Positions 1 through 10,666 of a DNA stretch of 10,666 bases are shown here, piece by piece (the first letter of the stretch is position 1; every line of letters starts with the position of its first letter). The position numbers were made by a program, and so were the translations under genes. The notes under the pieces were generated by a model that did not search any database, had not been told where the DNA came from, and worked only from the letters and a program-made list of their open reading frames with translations. The DNA is from a virus (Duplodnaviria; Heunggongvirae; Uroviricota; Caudoviricetes): IMG/VR virus record IMGVR_UViG_2609459801_000016. One strand, given 5' to 3'.

Positions 1-1113
1 ATGAATTACTCTCACGATAACTGGTCAGCAATTCTGGCCCATATTGGTAAGCCCGAAGAACTGGATACTTCGGCACGTAATGCCGGGGCTCTACCCCGCC
101 GCCGCGAAATTCGTGATGCTGCAACTCTGCTACGTCTGGGGCTGGCTTACGGCCCCGGGGGGATGTCATTACGTGAAGTCACTGCATGGGCTCAGCTCCA
201 TGACGTTGCAACATTATCTGACGTGGCTCTCCTGAAGCGGCTGCGGAATGCCGCCGACTGGTTTGGCATACTTGCCGCACAAACACTTGCTGTACGCGCC
301 GCAGTTACGGGTTGTACAAGCGGAAAGAGATTGCGTCTTGTCGATGGAACAGCAATCAGTGCGCCCGGGGGCGGCAGCGCTGAATGGCGACTACATATGG
401 GATATGATCCTCATACCTGTCAGTTCACTGATTTTGAGCTAACCGACAGCAGAGACGCTGAACGGCTGGACCGATTTGCGCAAACGGCAGACGAGATACG
501 CATTGCTGACCGGGGATTCGGTTCGCGTCCCGAATGTATCCGCTCACTTGCTTTTGGAGAAGCTGATTATATCGTCCGGGTTCACTGGCGAGGATTGCGC
601 TGGTTAACTGCAGAAGGAATGCGCTTTGACATGATGGGTTTTCTGCGCGGGCTGGATTGCGGTAAGAACGGTGAAACCACTGTAATGATAGGCAATTCAG
701 GTAATAAAAAAGCCGGAGCTCCCTTTCCGGCACGTCTCATTGCCGTATCACTTCCTCCCGAAAAAGCATTAATCAGTAAAACCCGACTGCTCAGCGAGAA
801 TCGTCGAAAAGGACGAGTAGTTCAGGCGGAAACGCTGGAAGCAGCGGGCCATGTGCTATTGCTAACATCATTACCGGAAGATGAATATTCAGCAGAGCAA
901 GTGGCTGATTGTTACCGTCTGCGATGGCAAATTGAACTGGCTTTTAAGCGGCTCAAAAGTTTGCTGCACCTGGATGCTTTGCGTGCAAAGGAACCTGAAC
1001 TCGCGAAAGCGTGGATATTTGCTAATCTACTCGCCGCATTTTTAATTGACGACATAATCCAGCCATCGCTGGATTTCCCCCCCAGAAGTGCCGGATCCGA
1101 AAAGAAGAACTAA
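1..1113 (+). CDS. insL: IS4-family DDE transposase, IS186/IS421-type (InsL-like), 370 aa
   Basis: Uninterrupted 370-codon ORF starting with ATG at window position 1. C-terminal YRLRWQIELAFKRLK matches the Y-2-R-3-E-6-K signature of IS4-family transposases. Length and N-terminus (MNYSHDNW...) match my recollection of E. coli IS186 InsL; not verified by search. Confidence 0.85.
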   Translation: MNYSHDNWSAILAHIGKPEELDTSARNAGALPRRREIRDAATLLRLGLAYGPGGMSLREVTAWAQLHDVATLSDVALLKRLRNAADWFGILAAQTLAVRAAVTGCTSGKRLRLVDGTAISAPGGGSAEWRLHMGYDPHTCQFTDFELTDSRDAERLDRFAQTADEIRIADRGFGSRPECIRSLAFGEADYIVRVHWRGLRWLTAEGMRFDMMGFLRGLDCGKNGETTVMIGNSGNKKAGAPFPARLIAVSLPPEKALISKTRLLSENRRKGRVVQAETLEAAGHVLLLTSLPEDEYSAEQVADCYRLRWQIELAFKRLKSLLHLDALRAKEPELAKAWIFANLLAAFLIDDIIQPSLDFPPRSAGSEKKN

Positions 1114-2567: not shown

Positions 2568-2915
2568 ATGAAAATAGATTACGATGAAGTATTAAGTATT
2601 CTCACAACTTTTCAGGATGCTGAAACACCTTTCCTTACACTACAGGATCTGGGCATGGCTGAGGCAGAAGGAGAGGAAAAGGATAAAAAAGTTTTTCATC
2701 TTATGCTTCTCGCTGATAATGGCTCAATTGTTAATGGTGATATGCAGTCAGAAACACCCAAATATATTGGTTTCTTTTTCCATTCTCTGGGCGTTGGTTT
2801 CAGAAACACGCCCATTATGCTTACCCAGCAGGGGCATGATTTAGCTAACGCCCTGAGAAAAAACCAATCCTTGAAAGAATCAAAAAGGAGTTTACAGACG
2901 CACCATTTGATCTAA
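2568..2915 (+). CDS. Hypothetical 115-aa protein on the opposite strand to the early operon; possibly DUF2513-like
   Basis: ATG at 2568 with AAAGG 7 nt upstream; no competing minus-strand ORF of 60 aa or more. Visibly more AT-rich than the flanking genes. MKIDYDEVLSIL..., FHLMLLADNGSIV and LTQQGHDLANAL loosely resemble the remembered DUF2513 pattern (MKRDxDLIRxIL...HLxLLxEAGLI...LTWxGHDFLD); this assignment is tentative. Confidence 0.55.
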   Translation: MKIDYDEVLSILTTFQDAETPFLTLQDLGMAEAEGEEKDKKVFHLMLLADNGSIVNGDMQSETPKYIGFFFHSLGVGFRNTPIMLTQQGHDLANALRKNQSLKESKRSLQTHHLI

Positions 2916-2938: not shown

Positions 2939-3247
2939 TTAACCAGGTTCGTCAAAGAACGTATTGGGATTGACTGAACAACTTAATTCAGCCAGTAATC
3001 GCAGGGCGGCGACAGCCGCCTGCTTGTCACTTCTTTTAGCTATTTCCGCAAGAGTATGCACAATCCATAACGGACTTAACGCCACGGCTGAATCCAGAAT
3101 CATGTCATCCATAATAATTTCTGGCATATCCCGCTTGTCACATTCTTTATCCATAAAAGAAACGAATTTCTCTGCATCTTCCGGTTTCATGCCTCCGGCG
3201 ATAAGGATTTTGCGATATTCATAAGACGATCTTAATTCAATACTCAT
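2939..3247 (-). CDS. Hypothetical protein, 102 aa (last gene of the gam-to-gemA cassette)
   Basis: ATG at 3247 with AGGTGA 3 nt upstream; 15-bp gap from the upstream gene. No family recognised. Confidence 0.55.
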   Translation of the reverse strand: MSIELRSSYEYRKILIAGGMKPEDAEKFVSFMDKECDKRDMPEIIMDDMILDSAVALSPLWIVHTLAEIAKRSDKQAAVAALRLLAELSCSVNPNTFFDEPG

Positions 3248-3262
3248 TATTCACCTGCCTGC

Positions 3263-3613
3263 TTAATCTGTTTCCAGTGCTTTGCTACGGGCTATAGCCT
3301 CACATTCAAAAAATACCGACTCCGGCACGCGCTCTTTTAATTCACGAACAAGGAAATCATTAACGCGTTCATGACGTCTTATATTTCTTTCCTTTTCCTC
3401 CTGGCGCAATACAGCAAGGCGGTATTCAACAGCCCGGCGTTGTTTCTGAAAGACAGCCAGTGCTTTTCTGGCAGCATTACGCCATGCATCATCGCCACAT
3501 GGTGCGTATTCAAGCTGAAATTTAATCTCTTCAATAGTTTCTTTGATTTTTGCCAGCAAGCTAAGACAGTCGCTTATTGTCTCCAGCTTTTCATTATCAA
3601 TATAACTTCTCAC
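3263..3613 (-). CDS. Hypothetical charged, probably helical protein, about 116 aa
   Basis: The ORF track begins at a GTG at 3655. I prefer the in-frame GTG at 3613..3611 because it is preceded by GGGAGGTG with 6-nt spacing and overlaps the upstream stop as GTGA. Lys/Arg/Glu-rich sequence; no family recognised. Confidence 0.5.
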   Translation of the reverse strand: MRSYIDNEKLETISDCLSLLAKIKETIEEIKFQLEYAPCGDDAWRNAARKALAVFQKQRRAVEYRLAVLRQEEKERNIRRHERVNDFLVRELKERVPESVFFECEAIARSKALETD

Positions 3614-3939
3614 GCATTCACCTCCCGTAATTCCGGTAAAGCCGAAATATGACACCAGTGCGTCACCTGTCCGTCTTCATCTTCAAGGCAGGCTCCGGTT
3701 TCTTCATCAACAAAAAAGCCTTCATACCCCATATGGCCGATGCGCAGCTCCTGACGGTGACCATACTGAACAATCAGCACGACAGCCTCCATATCAGGTG
3801 GGAAAGTATCATTCAGTGAATGCCAGGGATAACCGCGTAAATCCCCGAAATAAACACCGGTCAGCGTTCCGCCACAGAGCGGCATTCCGGCGGCACACAC
3901 AAGAGGTTCATCTGATTCAACAAATAAGGTCGTTATCAT
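3610..3939 (-). CDS. Hypothetical protein, 109 aa; C-terminal VTHW...LPE motif reminiscent of DUF551 phage proteins
   Basis: ATG at 3939 overlaps the upstream stop as ATGA, with GGGAG 8 nt upstream. The C-terminal GQVTHWCHISALPE resembles the conserved C-terminal motif of DUF551 proteins as I recall them; weak assignment. Confidence 0.55.
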   Translation of the reverse strand: MITTLFVESDEPLVCAAGMPLCGGTLTGVYFGDLRGYPWHSLNDTFPPDMEAVVLIVQYGHRQELRIGHMGYEGFFVDEETGACLEDEDGQVTHWCHISALPELREVNA

Positions 3940-4487
3940 GGCGTTAACTCCCGTAATACAGCGTCCTCGGCAGTCCGGCGACGGTAATAAACTGCGTGAG
4001 CAGAATGTTCAGATATTCCAAACTTTTCGCCAATTTCCCGGAATGACAGACGGCGTGGGTAATCGGAATCACGCAGCGCACGTATAAGACGTACATCATC
4101 ATCAGATATGCGCGTGCCGGGGCGTAACTCTCCGCACTTTGTTAATCCAGCACCAATCATTCCTGCCCGACATCTGACAGAATCTTTATTACGTCCGAGA
4201 TATTCTCCCATTTGCTGGCAGGTCATTGTTCTGGCATTTTTTCGAATAAACTTATCTTCATCAGGTGTAAATCTTGGGTGTTTATATTTCAGTAACTCCG
4301 GGTATGAACTGCGCAATACACCAGTCCGGTTATATACAGCCCAGACAGTTCTTTTTATTCTGGCAGCAATATCCTTAACCGGGGTGGATGAATAAAGCGC
4401 AATCAGCAGCGCATCTTCTTCAGGTGTCCACGGACGGACATGAGCGGGGGCGCGACCTTTTAGTCCCATGGGTTGTAATTTCATCAT
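3936..4487 (-). CDS. Predicted DNA-binding protein with two Myb/GcrA-like HTH repeats and a third C-terminal HTH, 183 aa
   Basis: ATG at 4487 with GGGGGTGA upstream. Repeat 1 WTPEEDALLIALYSSTPVKDIAARIKRTVWAVYNRTGVL and repeat 2 FTPDEDKFIRKNARTMTCQQMGEYLGRNKDSVRCRAGMIG both follow the W/F-T-x-E/D-E-D...I/M-A/G...R..AV pattern of GcrA-N/Myb-like HTH domains. The C-terminal LSFREIGEKFGISEHSAHAVYYRR looks like a further HTH. Confidence 0.6.
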   Translation of the reverse strand: MMKLQPMGLKGRAPAHVRPWTPEEDALLIALYSSTPVKDIAARIKRTVWAVYNRTGVLRSSYPELLKYKHPRFTPDEDKFIRKNARTMTCQQMGEYLGRNKDSVRCRAGMIGAGLTKCGELRPGTRISDDDVRLIRALRDSDYPRRLSFREIGEKFGISEHSAHAVYYRRRTAEDAVLRELTP

Positions 4488-4490
4488 GCA

Positions 4491-5006
4491 TCACCCCCTG
4501 ACTCGCTTTTCAGCAGCATAAAACTCATCAGACAGTATTTCGGTCATTTTCTGTTTTGCGGGTTTTACGCCGCACTGAAGGTAAATCACATCGTCAACGC
4601 AGAACCACTTCACAGGGCCAAACAGGATTGCCGAGAAATCAATACCCAGCCAGAACAACAGCGCATCGGTTCTGGCATACGTGACGGGCGAATATTCACG
4701 CCACAGACTGTTCAGTTCATCAGAGGCAACACGCAGGGTTTTAGGGATACGTGATGTGCGCGGTGTGCAGCTCCAGCCATTCGACGCAGTCGGTTTTCGC
4801 CATAAGTCGCGATGAAAAGGATATTTGTCCTCCGTAAAACGCAGTCCCTTAAAGCAAAATCCACTGATACCGGATACAAATACCGACCGGCACGCAACAT
4901 TCAGCACGGCCTCAAGGCGTTTTGCCTCATCCTTAACTTTCTGGCAGTCCTGCTGGTATTTTTGCCACGCAGCCAGCGCGGAAGGGTTTGATGTTTTAAA
5001 GAACAT
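4491..5006 (-). CDS. Hypothetical protein, 171 aa
   Basis: ATG at 5006 with GGAGGTG 5 nt upstream; start overlaps the upstream stop as TAATG. No family recognised. Confidence 0.6.
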   Translation of the reverse strand: MFFKTSNPSALAAWQKYQQDCQKVKDEAKRLEAVLNVACRSVFVSGISGFCFKGLRFTEDKYPFHRDLWRKPTASNGWSCTPRTSRIPKTLRVASDELNSLWREYSPVTYARTDALLFWLGIDFSAILFGPVKWFCVDDVIYLQCGVKPAKQKMTEILSDEFYAAEKRVRG

Positions 5007-5539
5007 TACGCCACCTCCGCAGATATCCCGGCAGGCGCTGCTGTCCGGTCAACAATCAGGTAGCGCAGAACATGTTCAGTGATATTCCAGCCGCTTAAAC
5101 CGCAGATAATGACGCCCAGGCGTATGTCGATATACGCCATCACAAACTGGGGCACGCCTTCTTTCATGGCCTGCTCATCAACTTCAGCCACCACATAAAC
5201 GGTTTCACAGGTCAGAACGCCCTGAGCAAATTCCCACGCCATCGACGGAATATCATGCCCCTCAATCCATGGCAGGGATTTTCTGAAGCCGCACCACTGA
5301 ACATCATCAGCCGCAGATTCCTGGCTGCATTTGCGACGAACCGGCTGCACCGGGCGGGGGCGCGGAATATCATAAAAACCGTTACATTCCGTCAGCACGC
5401 CTGCATCAACCGCATCACGCAGAAAATAAACCATGGAGGATGGCGGCATATTCATTTTTTCAGCCAGTACACCGCAGGTCAGGCGGCCATAAATACGCAG
5501 CCAGTTTTTAACCCCTTCAAGCACTTTTGCATCAATCAT
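5006..5539 (-). CDS. Hypothetical protein with N-terminal winged-HTH-like segment, 177 aa (first gene after the post-gam leader)
   Basis: ATG at 5539 preceded by GGTGGGGAAA. The N-terminal NWLRIYGRLTCGVLAEKMNMPPSSMVYFLRDAVDAGVLTE resembles Lrp/AsnC- or MarR-like wHTH spacing. The C-terminal domain is not recognised. Confidence 0.6.
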   Translation of the reverse strand: MIDAKVLEGVKNWLRIYGRLTCGVLAEKMNMPPSSMVYFLRDAVDAGVLTECNGFYDIPRPRPVQPVRRKCSQESAADDVQWCGFRKSLPWIEGHDIPSMAWEFAQGVLTCETVYVVAEVDEQAMKEGVPQFVMAYIDIRLGVIICGLSGWNITEHVLRYLIVDRTAAPAGISAEVA

Positions 5540-5684
5540 GATTTATTTCCCCACCACATTATTAATGACGATATAAACGTATTTCATATTTCTTAACCCT
5601 TATTTTCTGTTTTCAGGCGCAAGCAGTCCCCTGACGCGAGCGCCATAATTAAAATGAAGTGATATTTAATTGATTAATGCGGTG
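5540..5684 (-). promoter_or_regulatory. AT-rich 145-bp leader between gam and the downstream cassette; candidate internal promoter/operator
   Basis: Only long non-coding gap inside the otherwise tightly packed early operon. Contains the 11-bp perfect palindrome CATTATTAATG (5557-5567) about 18 nt upstream of the ATG and several -10/-35-like hexamers (TTAAGA, TATATC). No promoter could be assigned confidently by eye. Confidence 0.3.
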
Positions 5685-6215
5685 TTATTTATTCAGTCCG
5701 GCGTCCTGTTCAAAAGGCTCGACATAAAAACTTTCAGCGCCTTTATTCACCTTGATACCGGCAATGCCTTTCACAGCATCCGGCTCCGCCAGGACGGCTT
5801 CCTTGTTCACTTCCTCTTTCGTGCGGATGAAACGCTCAAGCCCCATACGGCGCAGCATTTCAATCACACCTTCCACATCACGGCTGACGCTGCATGATGG
5901 CGTTCCCAGCCGCCATGACACCGTTCCGGTGGTCAGATTGGCTGTTTTGGTTTTGCCGCCGTTCGTCAGCTCATCACGGTTGGTTTTGCACCAGTCCTGA
6001 ATCCCTTTAAAAAGCACTTTGATTTGCTTTTTAAGATTTTCAATCTGCGGCGTATAACGGGCGGTGATTTCTGCCACTTCGTCATTCATCGCCGTTTCCA
6101 GGCGCAGCGCCTCTCGCTGAATATCTCCCAGGGTGCGGATATCACGGCTGACTTCTTCCCGGGTCTGCGGTGCCGCCTCGGCTGCGGCCTTTAATTTTGT
6201 AACGCGTTTAGCCAT
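5685..6215 (-). CDS. gam: Host-nuclease inhibitor protein Gam (Mu Gam family), 176 aa
   Basis: ATG at 6215 with AAGGA upstream. The translation aligns along its whole length with Mu Gam as I recall it (e.g. ...WCKTNRDELTNGGKTKTANLTTGTVSWRL...RFIRTKEEVNKEAVL...PFEQDAGL). Confidence 0.9.
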   Translation of the reverse strand: MAKRVTKLKAAAEAAPQTREEVSRDIRTLGDIQREALRLETAMNDEVAEITARYTPQIENLKKQIKVLFKGIQDWCKTNRDELTNGGKTKTANLTTGTVSWRLGTPSCSVSRDVEGVIEMLRRMGLERFIRTKEEVNKEAVLAEPDAVKGIAGIKVNKGAESFYVEPFEQDAGLNK

Positions 6216-6226
6216 TTTGTTTTTCC

Positions 6227-6520
6227 TTATTGCAGTGTGCCTGATGCTTTATGCACGCGGTGGCGTTTAATGATGGCATCCGCTCCAAAAGACTGTGCAG
6301 ATGCCTGAAATTCCGCTGAGAGAAACTGAATAATTGCAGGACTGTGATACTGGAGAATACTTGCATAAACGTCACAGAGTGACGTCGGCCTGTTATCCGT
6401 ATCACGTTCTGTTTTCACATCCACTCCAATCTTTTCATGCACTTCAACACAGTCATTGCCTGCCAACTTTTCGTCATGCGAAACATGATTAAATTCAAAA
6501 ATAACGCGTACTTTGCTCAT
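6227..6520 (-). CDS. Hypothetical small protein, 97 aa; paralog of the adjacent upstream gene
   Basis: The track ORF starts at 6547, but the ATG at 6520 is preceded by AGGGG 7 nt upstream and lies just after the upstream stop. The N-terminus MSKVRVIFEF closely matches MSKVVRIIFEY of the 6525-6797 protein, and the start regions are also similar at the DNA level. Confidence 0.6.
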   Translation of the reverse strand: MSKVRVIFEFNHVSHDEKLAGNDCVEVHEKIGVDVKTERDTDNRPTSLCDVYASILQYHSPAIIQFLSAEFQASAQSFGADAIIKRHRVHKASGTLQ

Positions 6521-6524
6521 GGAA

Positions 6525-6797
6525 TTACCCCTGTTGATTAAATTCATTACCGTTAATAACCCCGGAAGCCATGCCTCTGTCTTTCATGAATGCACTGGCT
6601 TTCATTGCCACAAACTCTGCGAAGTTTCTGCTTTCTGCCAGCATAACCACCCCAAAAATCATGGCGGGTCCATTATCTTTCTTCTTTATTCCGGTTGAAC
6701 GTATATCCAGACTTACCCCTCTGTGCGTGCTGCCATCAGAGTTTTTGCAGATAACATCTTCCTTGTATTCGAAAATAATGCGTACGACTTTACTCAT
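6525..6797 (-). CDS. Hypothetical small protein, 90 aa; paralog of the adjacent downstream gene
   Basis: ATG at 6797 overlapping the upstream stop as ATGA, with GAGGA upstream. Shares N-terminal and scattered internal similarity with the 6227-6520 product. Confidence 0.6.
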   Translation of the reverse strand: MSKVVRIIFEYKEDVICKNSDGSTHRGVSLDIRSTGIKKKDNGPAMIFGVVMLAESRNFAEFVAMKASAFMKDRGMASGVINGNEFNQQG

Positions 6798-7075
6798 CCT
6801 CTGGTCCTCGTTCTGTTTGGATAACTGACCCGGCGTCTAACCTCACGGCAGAACCGAATCATGGCATTAAAGGCTTCTTCCTCCGTCACCGCTTCCGGTA
6901 TCCCCGGAACCAGTAACTGCTCCTGTTCATCACGTCCATGACGCGCCATAACCTCAATCACATACCGTACCGTGGCAGGCTTTCCGGCAACTATCGGCAA
7001 TGCACCTTCCGGCAGGACGTAACCAAACTCAATAAGACCACTCGACCACGCCCATGCAATGAGATTTTTTTTCAC
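6794..7075 (-). CDS. Hypothetical protein, 93 aa (GTG start)
   Basis: GTG at 7075 preceded by GGGAGG with about 6-nt spacing, directly after the upstream TGA. No family recognised. Confidence 0.5.
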   Translation of the reverse strand: MKKNLIAWAWSSGLIEFGYVLPEGALPIVAGKPATVRYVIEVMARHGRDEQEQLLVPGIPEAVTEEEAFNAMIRFCREVRRRVSYPNRTRTRG

Positions 7076-7567: not shown

Positions 7568-8500
7568 TCACACCTGTGAGAGTAATTCAGGGTTGGTATA
7601 AACCTCTTTAAAGGCCGCATTAATATGTTTTTCTGTCAGCGCCGCGCCTTCACCGCTGGCGGTGAGCCACGCCTGGTTAAGCGTATGTGTCAGAACGCGT
7701 AACGCTCCCGGCTTTTCAGCGATAGCCTGCATGACGGCCAGCTCGGCCTCACCACTGATCCCCCACGCCATGGCAATGGCCAGCACATCCGCCTTTTTGG
7801 CCTTGCGAAGTTGTTTTGTACGGGCAAGACGGCTGAACAGGCGCGATAAATCATCAAAGGCGCGGCGTCCACCTTTAAACAATCCGCGCGGGTTACCAAT
7901 AAGCACCATCCCGATCCCCGTGGCGTCCTGAATTGCCCGGAGTTGCTCCAGACCGTCAATACCAAGATGATCCGCCTCATCCACAATCACCAGTCCACGC
8001 GTTCCCATCAGGCGACGGCGGATGGCGCGGGATAATGCCCCTTTGTTCGCGCGGGTGTAATCAATCCCCAGCGCATCGGCCAGCTCCAGCAGACACTCCG
8101 TGACGCTGGAGTGCGCGGGTGACAGGGTGATCATCCAGGTGTTTGGTTGCTCCTGGCAGTAATTACGGGCAGTGGCCGTTTTACCCACACCCGGTACGCC
8201 CACAATAACGTTAATACAGCCCATCAGGCGAACCGCCTGAAACAGTGCGCGCAGCTCCTGGACTGTCTGAGTTTCCACAAACTGCGGCGGTTCCGGCAGT
8301 GCGCTTTGTTTATTCCAGTTCTCATACCAGGAGCGCAGGGAAGCAGCCACAGCGGCGTTATCGCCTTTATATTTCCCCTTGCGGAAAGCCGATAATGTGC
8401 CGTCGGAAATTCCCGCCTCTCTGGCGATGGCATACTGCGTCAGCACGCCGCCATCAATAAGTTCATCAATGGTCTTGATTACATCGTTTATATCGGTCAT
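7568..8500 (-). CDS. B: MuB-like transposition ATPase / target DNA activator, 310 aa
   Basis: ATG at 8500 with GAGGT upstream. Walker A GVPGVGKT, Walker B-like LVIVDEADHL, and end-to-end similarity to Mu B as I recall it (ETQTV..., KPGALRVL...). Lies directly downstream of the transposase. Confidence 0.9.
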   Translation of the reverse strand: MTDINDVIKTIDELIDGGVLTQYAIAREAGISDGTLSAFRKGKYKGDNAAVAASLRSWYENWNKQSALPEPPQFVETQTVQELRALFQAVRLMGCINVIVGVPGVGKTATARNYCQEQPNTWMITLSPAHSSVTECLLELADALGIDYTRANKGALSRAIRRRLMGTRGLVIVDEADHLGIDGLEQLRAIQDATGIGMVLIGNPRGLFKGGRRAFDDLSRLFSRLARTKQLRKAKKADVLAIAMAWGISGEAELAVMQAIAEKPGALRVLTHTLNQAWLTASGEGAALTEKHINAAFKEVYTNPELLSQV

Positions 8501-8539: not shown

Positions 8540-8580
8540 AATAACCTGAGTCGCCGCTCGGGTTATTTTTTTATTTCAGG
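8540..8580. other. Stem-loop with T/A-rich flanks in the A-B intergenic region
   Basis: AATAACCTGAG (8540-8550) / CTCGGGTTATT (8557-8567): 11-bp stem with one G-U pair and a 6-nt loop. Followed on the plus strand by TTTTTTATTT, and on the minus-strand mRNA by UUGAUUAAAC before the B ribosome-binding site. Confidence 0.4.
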
Positions 8581-10666
8581 CCAGAGGGTCATTTTCTTTT
8601 AATTTCGCTTCAAGCAGCTGCAATCCCCGCTGGAAATTACGCTCGTATTCTTCATCAGGTTCATCGTCAGCGACCGGTTGCTGAACGATCACCGTATTAC
8701 CCACAGGGCGGTATATATTTTCCAGCCACGGCTCCTGTGGCTTGTGCTCCAGCACGTTGACAATCTCATCCTCGGCATCACGGATTTTTTCCTCTGCGCG
8801 TTTACGCATGCCTTTAAGGCGCTGCTGCTGTTTGTGGTATTCCGCGCTGACCGGGAAGGCTTCGCGTTTATTGCCGTCCCATACCGCCTCGCAAATCACG
8901 CTGCCATCCAGGCGACGTACGGTAATTCGTTCGGCATCATGAATGTCATAGCTGATAAGCACCTTACGACCATGCTCGTCACGCAGCTCGGGCGCGTAGT
9001 AAATATTATTCAGCCAGCGTATTTCACAGCGTCTTACAGGGCGTTCCACCATCGGCCGGAACATATCCCGCAGCTCAACATCGGACAGCCATTCAATTTC
9101 CGTGTCCTCTTCCGCCAGGCGTTTTTTTCTGAACTCCGCCGGGCTGTAATGCTTGCCGTTCGGCTTCACCGGTAATTCATCGTGCGGCCGGTTGTTGTAC
9201 CACTCAACACCATCACGAATGGCATCAATCAGTTCAGCCCAGGACGGTGAATCACGCATCGCTGACTGCTGCCGGGCGTTCAGCCGTTTGCCCTGTTGCA
9301 GGGCAGTAAATGCCGAGCGTAAATCGCGGTTGGTTTTGCGTAACGTCTCGCGATCTGCACCTTTCCCGAAATAGGTGCGGTATTTACGGGCTATGCGCAT
9401 CGGTAATGTGCGGTTAAGCCGTTCGATAATGCCTCGTCCCTGCGGATTACCGGCAATCCCGGTCGGGTGATTAATCCCCAGTCGCGGCAGTATCCCCACA
9501 ACCTCCTTATCCAGGATGTCGGCGGTTTCCCCGGAGCCGTTATCCGAGTAATACAGAAACGGTTTGCCGTGATGGCGAATGCCGTGCTGTATGGCACCGG
9601 CTACGGCGAAAACATTTTCAGCCAGGTCAAGGCTCCAGCCCACCACAAAGCGCGTGCCACCGTCGATAACAAAGGTCACTTCCGGTGCAAATGGCCGACC
9701 GTGAACCGGGTGTGCGCATTTCAGCTTCATGCCGTGACCGTCACCAATCCAGACATAATTCACCGGCATTCTGGACCAGTCGCGGCGCGTGAATCCCTCA
9801 AGCTGGCGGTATTCACTGCCGGTCACCCGGCCTTTTTGTTTCACCACTTCCGGCAGTTTCTTCATTGCGCGGCGAATGGTGTCATAAGACGGCATGATAT
9901 CGAGCATATAAGGCTCATCAGCGTGCCGGTGCTGCCATTCAGCGACAAAATCCTCGTAAGCCTCGGTCATTGGTCGGCCGTTTGACTGGCGATACTGCGC
10001 CAGAAATTCGGGCAGCCAGTTAATATCTTCGGCTTTTATTTCCTGGCGCTTACCCGGTGCCAGTAAAAGCAGGCGTTCAGCGGCGTTCTGCGCCTTGTTA
10101 AAGGCCGCAATCCAGCGTTTCAGCGTGATTTCACTTAACGCGCGGCTGTTTCCCTTTTTGGCGTTCGCCGTCTCAACCATTGCCACAATGCGCTCGTCCA
10201 GCTGCGAACGTGCCAGGTTGTCAACGATAAACCGGATAGCCTTCGCACAGCTGAAACCAGGTTGTTGCGCGACTTTCAGAACTTCGCTGACGATCGCGAT
10301 TCGTGCATCAGCCACCTGGCGCTGGTTTTCAGTCAGGGCATTAAGGCGTTCGACCATCAGTTGTGGTGATCCGCGATATGCCTCCACCGCATCAACCACG
10401 GCAGGCGAGCGTCTGGCCTTTGTCACCACTGGAGCCGGTGATTCATCGACTTTTTGAGTCATCAGTTGCAGGGCGTAGCGTTCACGTAATGCCTGCTGCG
10501 TCACTTCAGGTAAACAGTCGATGCTGTATTCAGTTGCTTTAGAGCCTGAGCGACGACGGGAACAACAGCTTTTCCCTTGTACGTAACGTTGTAATGCCTG
10601 GCGAATACCTTTTGTTGTAGCAGGCATTCCGGGCGCACCAATCAGTTCTTTTGCAATGACATACAT
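8576..10666 (-). CDS. A: MuA-like DDE transposase, 696 aa
   Basis: ATG at the window edge (10666..10664); the true start could be a codon or two upstream but the N-terminus (YVIAKELIGAPGMP) aligns with the Mu A N-terminus as I recall it. Central catalytic region (...WIGDGHGMKL..., ...YYSDNGSGE...) and C-terminal RPVGNT...DDEPDEEYER tail also resemble Mu A. Confidence 0.9.
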   Translation of the reverse strand: MYVIAKELIGAPGMPATTKGIRQALQRYVQGKSCCSRRRSGSKATEYSIDCLPEVTQQALRERYALQLMTQKVDESPAPVVTKARRSPAVVDAVEAYRGSPQLMVERLNALTENQRQVADARIAIVSEVLKVAQQPGFSCAKAIRFIVDNLARSQLDERIVAMVETANAKKGNSRALSEITLKRWIAAFNKAQNAAERLLLLAPGKRQEIKAEDINWLPEFLAQYRQSNGRPMTEAYEDFVAEWQHRHADEPYMLDIMPSYDTIRRAMKKLPEVVKQKGRVTGSEYRQLEGFTRRDWSRMPVNYVWIGDGHGMKLKCAHPVHGRPFAPEVTFVIDGGTRFVVGWSLDLAENVFAVAGAIQHGIRHHGKPFLYYSDNGSGETADILDKEVVGILPRLGINHPTGIAGNPQGRGIIERLNRTLPMRIARKYRTYFGKGADRETLRKTNRDLRSAFTALQQGKRLNARQQSAMRDSPSWAELIDAIRDGVEWYNNRPHDELPVKPNGKHYSPAEFRKKRLAEEDTEIEWLSDVELRDMFRPMVERPVRRCEIRWLNNIYYAPELRDEHGRKVLISYDIHDAERITVRRLDGSVICEAVWDGNKREAFPVSAEYHKQQQRLKGMRKRAEEKIRDAEDEIVNVLEHKPQEPWLENIYRPVGNTVIVQQPVADDEPDEEYERNFQRGLQLLEAKLKENDPLA

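Follow-up and report, generated by a model that had tools for sequence, protein, structure and literature searches.

The 10,666-nucleotide (nt) stretch analyzed here (IMG/VR virus record IMGVR_UViG_2609459801_000016; the window) comes from a Mu-like prophage of Escherichia coli and covers its early region, which is read on the minus strand. Its gene at positions 3936 to 4487 encodes a 183-amino-acid (aa) protein that carries three helix-turn-helix (HTH) modules on a single chain and is homologous to the D5 protein of phage T5. We propose that this D5-like protein is an accessory early binder of double-stranded DNA, a flexible chain of three HTHs that would modulate the replication and/or transcription program of the phage in a D5-like manner, a reading to which we give a probability of roughly 0.6. 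The structure of the gene, its operon context, the domain architecture and the homology to D5, to gp9 of phage Mu, to Myb and to the DNA-binding domain (DBD) of GcrA were established directly. The protein is an uncharacterized member of a family that is already catalogued in RefSeq and as PHROG 323, and it is otherwise ordinary in being a correctly recognized DNA-binding architecture in an accessory phage gene. What the analysis adds is an explicit connection between D5, gp9 and the D5-like protein, a model with three modules, and a correction to the name "AsnC" under which such proteins are often found.

Homology to D5 was detected in two ways. The D5-like protein matched PHROG 323, whose label is "transcriptional regulator, D5-like," with an E value of 2e-52 (179.7 bits; residues 2 to 182 on profile positions 80 to 256), and D5 itself (T5.118, YP_006946.1, 255 aa) matched the same profile at E = 1e-71. 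In addition, residues 71 to 251 of D5 aligned with residues 17 to 183 of the D5-like protein when a profile of 30 family sequences was used (hhalign, 97%, E = 1.3e-10), with the three modules in the same order. In the T5 record, the entry for D5 reads [quoted passage not shown] DNA binding by D5 is reportedly the subject of work by McCorquodale et al. dating from 1979 (J Virol 29:322, as cited in PMC12630848). DNA binding by the D5-like protein is therefore a reasonable inference from this homology. In a preprint of July 2026, D5 is treated as an HTH nucleic acid binder whose HTH is predicted to bind the msdDNA of a retron; D5 alone is reported to be toxic in E. coli and to trigger type IX retron-Kva2 (bioRxiv 10.64898/2026.07.11.737809).

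A further homologue was found in Mu itself. Mu gp9 (Mup09, formerly E8, 99 aa), which is encoded just upstream of gam, matched PHROG 323 at E = 5e-29 (profile positions 142 to 244) and aligned with residues 65 to 168 of the D5-like protein, corresponding to repeat 2 and the third HTH (hhalign, 98.3%, E = 1.6e-14). This relation is visible with profiles only; the BLASTP comparison of the two proteins was not significant (E = 1.7). An earlier note on this DNA had not recognized the protein as a standard Mu protein. This holds for its location, as canonical Mu has small gp13 and gp14 after gp12, along with gp15 on the opposite strand, and no gene of this kind. It does not hold for the module type, which, given the homology of gp9, is represented in Mu as well, with two modules and at another early site.

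The earlier note had read the protein as two tandem Myb/GcrA-like repeats followed by a third HTH, and this architecture was borne out in all three parts. Repeat 1 contains the motif W20-T-P-E-E-D (residues 20 to 25) ... DIAARIKRTVWAV, repeat 2 contains F73-T-P-D-E-D (residues 73 to 78) ... QMGEYLGRNKDSV, and the third HTH-like stretch, LSFREIGEKFGIS, corresponds to residues 147 to 159. Compared as single sequences, the two repeats displayed a weak likeness (p ~0.02 in a local-alignment shuffle), while their family profiles aligned at 97.7% (E = 2e-12) with 12 sequences and at 98.9% (E = 3e-17) with 30 sequences (hhalign). The third HTH, which is more diverged, resembles generic AsnC-type and sigma-region-4-type HTHs, and it is distantly related to repeat 2 (hhalign, 91.7%, E = 8e-7, 30 sequences).

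An AlphaFold2 model, which the earlier note had suggested as a check, was built with the family alignment and gave a mean predicted local distance difference test (pLDDT) score of 79.5 and a predicted template modeling (pTM) score of 0.44. The model is all-helical, has no strands and shows three separate three-helix bundles, with helices at residues 22 to 31, 37 to 43 and 48 to 59, at residues 75 to 83, 90 to 97 and 101 to 111, and at residues 129 to 140, 149 to 156 and 160 to 169, plus a last helix at residues 173 to 181. Confidence was low at residues 1 to 16 and 118 to 124. The pTM value suggests that the modules are flexibly linked, which would account for the weakness of fold searches with the whole model and for the low TM-scores obtained in BFVD, where several phage proteins 100 to 180 aa long matched significantly (10 at E <= 0.001, best ~1e-5).

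Distant relatives of the repeats were recovered once the family was considered as a whole. With the D5-like protein as a single sequence, a sequence search of the PDB returned insignificant matches only, and the 30-sequence profile was required. This profile matched c-Myb R2R3 (1H88_C) at E = 3.7e-8, with query residues 19 to 105 on Myb residues 60 to 149 and both repeats in register, and it matched Cbp1 (2LVS), which has three HTHs, at E = 4.4e-6. The GcrA DBD aligned with repeat 1 and with repeat 2 at about 94% each (hhalign). By fold, the protein shows both the Myb/SANT three-helix bundle, with the HTH formed by helices 2 and 3, and the fold of the N-terminal DBD of GcrA. In the Pfam comparison proposed in the earlier note, the D5-like protein alone scored below the curated cut-offs (20.7 versus 24.4 bits for Myb, PF00249; 17.3 versus 22.9 bits for PF13921). 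When 12 family members were searched, Myb matched in 9 of them (E <= 0.01), an HTH_AsnC-type model in all 12 and Sigma70_r4 in 8 (best E = 9.5e-8).

Conservation was unevenly distributed along the chain. In the 30-sequence alignment, W20, K117, G119 and D129 are invariant, and helix 3 is the most variable part of modules 1, 2 and 3 (entropy of 2.26, 2.70 and 2.52 bits, respectively). Lower values were obtained for the N-terminal tail (1.70 bits), the linker (1.62), the first two helices of module 3 (1.06 for helix 1, 1.23 for helix 2) and the C-terminal tail (1.47). This pattern is expected for a DNA binder with reading heads that diverged along with the phage on a common scaffold, without being proof of binding. 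The 21-kDa protein is also basic, with an isoelectric point of 9.96 and 35 lysines and arginines versus 22 aspartates and glutamates (net charge, +13).

The gene is a real open reading frame (ORF) with a strong Shine-Dalgarno sequence. Its ATG lies 3 nt past the stop codon of the gp12-family gene, and its own TGA overlaps the next ATG, indicating, together with the Shine-Dalgarno sequence, that it belongs to the early operon and is translationally coupled within it (Table 1). MuA, MuB, Gam, gp12, GemA and Mor are all encoded on the same strand, in agreement with the phage early operon in which the gene had been placed before, and in a scan of the operon, sites resembling promoters or terminators were not in excess. 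Positions 3000 to 6500 of the window are identical to a stretch in E. coli AF39, in which the protein is WP_000977058.1, named "SANT/Myb-like DNA-binding domain-containing protein" in RefSeq.

Table 1. Modules of the D5-like protein and genes of the early region (positions in the window)
Feature	Position	Strand	Remarks
Target gene, D5-like triple-HTH protein	3936-4487	minus	183 aa plus stop; RefSeq WP_000977058.1
N-terminal tail, residues 1-18	4434-4487	minus	MxLxPMGxxGxxPAHVR; family-conserved; no confident modeled structure
Repeat 1, residues 19-62	4302-4433	minus	Myb/GcrA-DBD-like three-helix HTH; invariant W20; Y32 aligns with GcrA W15; putative recognition helix 48-59
Repeat 2, residues 72-115	4143-4274	minus	Second Myb/GcrA-DBD-like HTH; putative recognition helix 101-111, the most variable element of the family
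Linker, residues 116-128	4104-4142	minus	K-C-G-D/E motif (invariant K117, G119); T125 nearly invariant; low model confidence
Third HTH, residues 129-170	3978-4103	minus	D129xDVxLIRxLRD, helix 1; FREIGEKF, helix 2; helix 3, 160-169
C-terminal helix and tail, residues 171-183	3939-3977	minus	R-T-A-x-D-A-x-x-R-E-L-x-P; conserved
Shine-Dalgarno AGGGGG	4494-4499	minus	6 nt before the target ATG; inside the last codons of the gp12-family gene
Transposase A (MuA)	8576-10666	minus	Early operon gene
B (MuB)	7568-8500	minus	Followed by several small genes
Gam	5685-6215	minus	Followed by a 177-aa gene
Mu gp12-family gene (PHROG 2314)	4491-5006	minus	Upstream neighbor, same operon; stop TGA 4491-4493
Downstream neighbor, 109-aa protein (PHROG 6925)	3610-3939	minus	ATG overlaps the target stop (ATGA, 3936-3939)
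GemA/gp16	1991-2503	minus	Three small genes between target and gemA
Mor	1498-1920	minus	

We propose the following model, in which DNA binding, binding mode, targets and effect are inferred. The D5-like protein would be translated from the same early (Pe) transcript as transposase A, B, Gam and GemA, and one chain of it would bind double-stranded DNA. The modules could each place their helix 3 in successive major grooves, as in c-Myb R2R3, the Tc3 bipartite domain and Cbp1, and further contacts to the backbone or the minor groove may come from the N-terminal tail, which is basic, and from the invariant K-C-G-D/E linker. The choice of target probably differs between phage lineages, since variability peaks in the three recognition helices, and the function common to the family would reside in the conserved parts, namely the tail, the linker, the first two helices of module 3 and the C-terminal helix. 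By analogy with D5, the protein, which is probably dispensable, would modulate phage replication and/or the transcription switch in lytic growth; its overproduction may be toxic to the host.

Several observations weigh against this model. Eukaryotic modules of the SANT type are often protein binders rather than DNA binders. The relation to D5 is remote and detectable by profile methods only, and the 70 N-terminal residues of D5 are missing from the D5-like protein, in which an 18-residue tail precedes repeat 1 instead. Moreover, D5, the one characterized relative, is essential in a virulent phage, whereas the gene studied here belongs to a transposable temperate phage and lies in its accessory early region, at a position where Mu itself has no gene. 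The Mu early region that holds the position is semi-essential, and little conserved across Mu-like phages, according to PMC4553209; the function of the D5-like protein may thus differ from that of D5. Finally, a Foldseek search of the whole model against the PDB returned nothing at E <= 0.001, and no candidate binding site for the protein was identified.

The alternative that survives best, which we regard as rather unlikely, is that the protein is, in line with the regulator of the earlier note, a sequence-specific transcription factor that recognizes a composite site of about 15 to 25 base pairs at phage or host promoters, activates or represses them, and plays no part in replication. Myb R2R3-type tandem repeats are typically sequence specific, and the variability of the recognition helices is what one would expect if each phage had its own sites. 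The PHROG category, "transcription regulation," points in the same direction; however, that label derives from T5 D5, for which a role in replication is on record as well. No repeated candidate operator was found or successfully sought in the window, and phages of the Mu type already possess the dedicated regulators Ner, Mor and C. This alternative also overlaps with the D5-like modulator that we favor.

The divergence of the gene between prophages bears on a second alternative. In two E. coli prophage lineages, that of the window and L004, the D5-like proteins are 69% identical, with a nonsynonymous divergence (dN) of 0.18 and a synonymous divergence (dS) of 0.59, whereas the flanking genes are 94 to 97% identical with a dS of 0.15 to 0.22. 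Across 37 copies, which fall into clades A and B, dN and dS between clades were 0.16 and 0.63 for this gene and 0.035 and 0.21 for gp12, and the between-clade dN/dS ratio (omega) was 0.26 to 0.31, compared to 0.10 to 0.16 for the neighbors. The omega of 1.68 obtained for repeat 1 reflects few changes and was not relied on. Within clades, synonymous and nonsynonymous polymorphisms numbered 8 and 9 in one clade and 40 and 37 in the other, compared to 49 and 41 for gp12; in the second clade, the nonsynonymous ones cluster at residues 98 to 118, which cover helix 3 of repeat 2. High synonymous divergence begins inside the gene, after repeat 1. Because synonymous divergence is raised as well and starts at this point, we interpret the two forms as an old allelic cassette moved by recombination. 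An arms race or positive selection on the gene is not claimed, as the within-clade counts resemble those of gp12 and the excess divergence is also synonymous.

These alleles could nevertheless be read differently. In this improbable alternative, the HTHs would act chiefly on a host or defense protein or nucleic acid instead of promoter DNA, as a protein-binding module or mimic, and serve host takeover, counter-defense or the triggering of defense. The two deeply diverged alleles among otherwise near-identical prophages would fit such a role, as would the finding that the most conserved parts of the protein are other than the recognition helices. The Sigma70_r4 matches in family members could point to mimicry of sigma region 4 toward RNA polymerase; they are, however, generic HTH similarity and stay below the cut-off for the D5-like protein itself. 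One HTH of D5 is reported to imitate the winged-helix protein of the type IX retron and in this way to trigger the retron (bioRxiv 10.64898/2026.07.11.737809). Against this, PADLOC defense-system models gave no match to the protein at E <= 0.01, and the within-clade polymorphism ratio, being the same as that of gp12, gives no clear sign of an arms race. It is conceivable, though we think it a long shot, that the D5-like proteins of temperate phages are three-headed single-chain nucleic acid binders that are sensed by, or neutralize, bacterial defense systems; T5 D5 is reported to be sensed by a type IX retron in that it binds the msDNA hairpin. If so, the variable recognition helices and the swapped diverged alleles would reflect an interaction with defense rather than promoter recognition. 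ORF55, the trigger of DRT4, was also considered; it is not D5 and has no bearing on the protein studied here.

Viral contigs that carry a three-module homologue show two arrangements. In Mu-like prophages, the gene always follows gp12. In P2-like phages, it lies in the early/replication region, shortly upstream of replication gene A (gpA). In two of the P2-like contigs, L051 (2719 to 5673) and L005 (759 to 2577), the homologue is flanked by a C5 cytosine methyltransferase on one side and by DUF4406 and a D12-class (Dam-type) adenine methyltransferase on the other. Similar upstream ORFs are present in L050, L053 and L054, where a methyltransferase is suggested by size alone, and no methyltransferase neighbor was found in the Mu-like loci. 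In mycobacteriophages, matches to the repeat overlap with genes that carry the annotation DNA methylase or HNH endonuclease. The literature on Myb-like phage proteins and on the semi-essential region of Mu provided general context only.

Such neighbors raise a third alternative, which we consider very unlikely, namely that one or both repeats read methylated DNA as GcrA does, sensing Dam (GATC) or phage adenine methylation and coupling it to phage gene expression. The similarity of both repeats to the GcrA DBD and the positions of W20 and Y32, which keep the spacing of W3 and W15 in GcrA, would be compatible with this, as would the methyltransferases beside the P2-like homologues and the methylases overlapped in mycobacteriophages. 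However, the adjoining methyltransferase is confirmed in L005 and L051 only. The methyl-adenine pocket of GcrA consists of R33, N34, I37 and G38 (PMC5887438). These residues align with V48, W49, Y52 and N53 in repeat 1 and with K101, D102, R105 and C106 in repeat 2, and the pocket is thus not kept in either. The sigma70-interacting domain of GcrA is absent as well, the three HTH modules filling all 183 aa, and the Pfam GcrA model (PF07750) did not match the protein even at E <= 10. For these reasons, membership in the GcrA family was rejected. The GcrA-N likeness proposed in the earlier note is therefore upheld for the fold of the DBD and fails for family membership.

The remaining alternative, an AsnC/Lrp-family regulator, is the name given in public databases to alleles 58 to 74% identical to the D5-like protein and to most homologues, and the HTH_AsnC-type model recurs throughout the family members searched, but we dismiss it on architecture, as the match in the D5-like protein is to a 42-residue HTH model only, covers residues 130 to 164 toward the C terminus and stays below the cut-off (19.1 versus 27 bits), the protein is all-helical, no AsnC/Lrp ligand-binding (RAM) domain was listed by Pfam even at E <= 10, and the rest of the chain is Myb-like.

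The name is nonetheless widespread. A match to positions 3000 to 6500 of the window was found in 232 of 5426 complete E. coli genomes, 139 of which contain at least 80% of the stretch, and many of the matching genomes name the D5-like protein "AsnC family protein" or "DNA-binding protein." While a word-indexed search recovered close relatives only, in E. coli and Salmonella, an exhaustive profile search returned 9774 proteins at E <= 0.001, including 102 at E <= 1e-30. About 30 of the best profile matches are proteins of 170 to 195 aa with the same three-module plan, encoded in Salmonella, Klebsiella, Raoultella and others and mostly named "AsnC family protein." Many other matches are long metagenomic proteins with 5 to 14 tandem copies of a Myb/GcrA-like repeat of about 45 aa (e.g., P0023, P0026, P0029 and P0031). 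In one of these, P0023 (807 aa; Pfam Myb, 140 bits), the repeats are fused to a ResIII/Helicase_C helicase, and the protein resembles T5.108, "replication origin binding," for which the record gives SANT/Myb and helicase domains. Another, P0026, exceeds the Pfam cut-off for GcrA (38.2 versus 26.9 bits).

The window holds a number of other features. A terminator-like hairpin on the minus strand at 1963 to 1986 (9-base-pair stem with 5 G-C pairs and a T-rich tail) is located between gemA/gp16 and mor; lying inside the presumed single early transcript, it could control how much Mor is made. A DUF2513 gene (2568 to 2915, plus strand, 115 aa, PHROG 585) sits mid-operon on the opposite strand, between a small early gene and gemA, and looks like an inserted accessory gene; lineage L004 has two other small genes at this position. 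The 93-aa early protein encoded at 6794 to 7075 on the minus strand matches PHROG 1518, "host nuclease inhibitor" (E = 2e-42), and the early operon may therefore contain two genes of the nuclease-inhibitor type, the other one being gam. An insertion sequence at 1 to 1283, with a transposase ORF of 370 aa (1 to 1113, plus strand), interrupts the endolysin gene of the prophage (remnant, 1280 to 1426). This element may be IS186, of the IS4 family. Homology to the intact AF39 prophage starts only at 1284, within the lysozyme coding sequence, and only about 47 N-terminal codons of lysozyme are left, so that this copy of the prophage probably cannot lyse its host.

The present analysis provides a domain model for a family that is widely mislabeled "AsnC family protein" and is a common sight in prophages of E. 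coli, Salmonella, Klebsiella, Raoultella and Citrobacter. It ties together T5 D5, Mu gp9/E8 and the early gene of Mu-like and P2-like phages, which are not usually linked, as carriers of one short type of module, the Myb/GcrA type. How T5 switches transcription is not understood according to PMC7472727, and a small, non-essential relative in a temperate phage would be an easy system in which to study what modules of the D5 type bind.

Compared with c-Myb R2R3, the D5-like protein shares the three-helix fold, the W-T-x-E-E-D start of helix 1 and helix 3 as the likely reading head. Its repeats are shorter, however (about 44 residues versus about 52), and of the three Myb tryptophans, it keeps the first only (W20, with F73 in repeat 2), the second and third positions being non-aromatic in the alignment to 1H88_C. 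It also differs from Myb in its setting in a bacterial virus and in having a third, non-Myb HTH. The GcrA DBD belongs to the same length class as the repeats. Unlike the D5-like protein, GcrA of Caulobacter (PDB 5YIU/5YIV) combines one such domain with a C-terminal domain that binds region 2 of sigma70. Given the GcrA-like repeats of about 44 residues, the first Myb tryptophan and Y32 at the position of GcrA W15, "Myb/GcrA-like" is a fair term for fold and distant homology. In arrangement, the protein resembles Cbp1 of Sulfolobus (2LVS) and the bipartite domain of Tc3 transposase (1U78/1TC3), in which several small HTHs are likewise joined by short linkers on one chain. Cbp1 binds CRISPR repeats and the Tc3 domain binds transposon ends; these roles are unrelated, and the likeness concerns module type and arrangement only. 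Mu gp9 has two modules instead of three and is sited upstream of gam rather than after gp12, although both genes belong to the early region. D5 shares all three modules. Identity to D5 is low (about 24% over aligned columns). W74 of D5 aligns with the family-invariant W20, and both proteins are expressed before the late genes.

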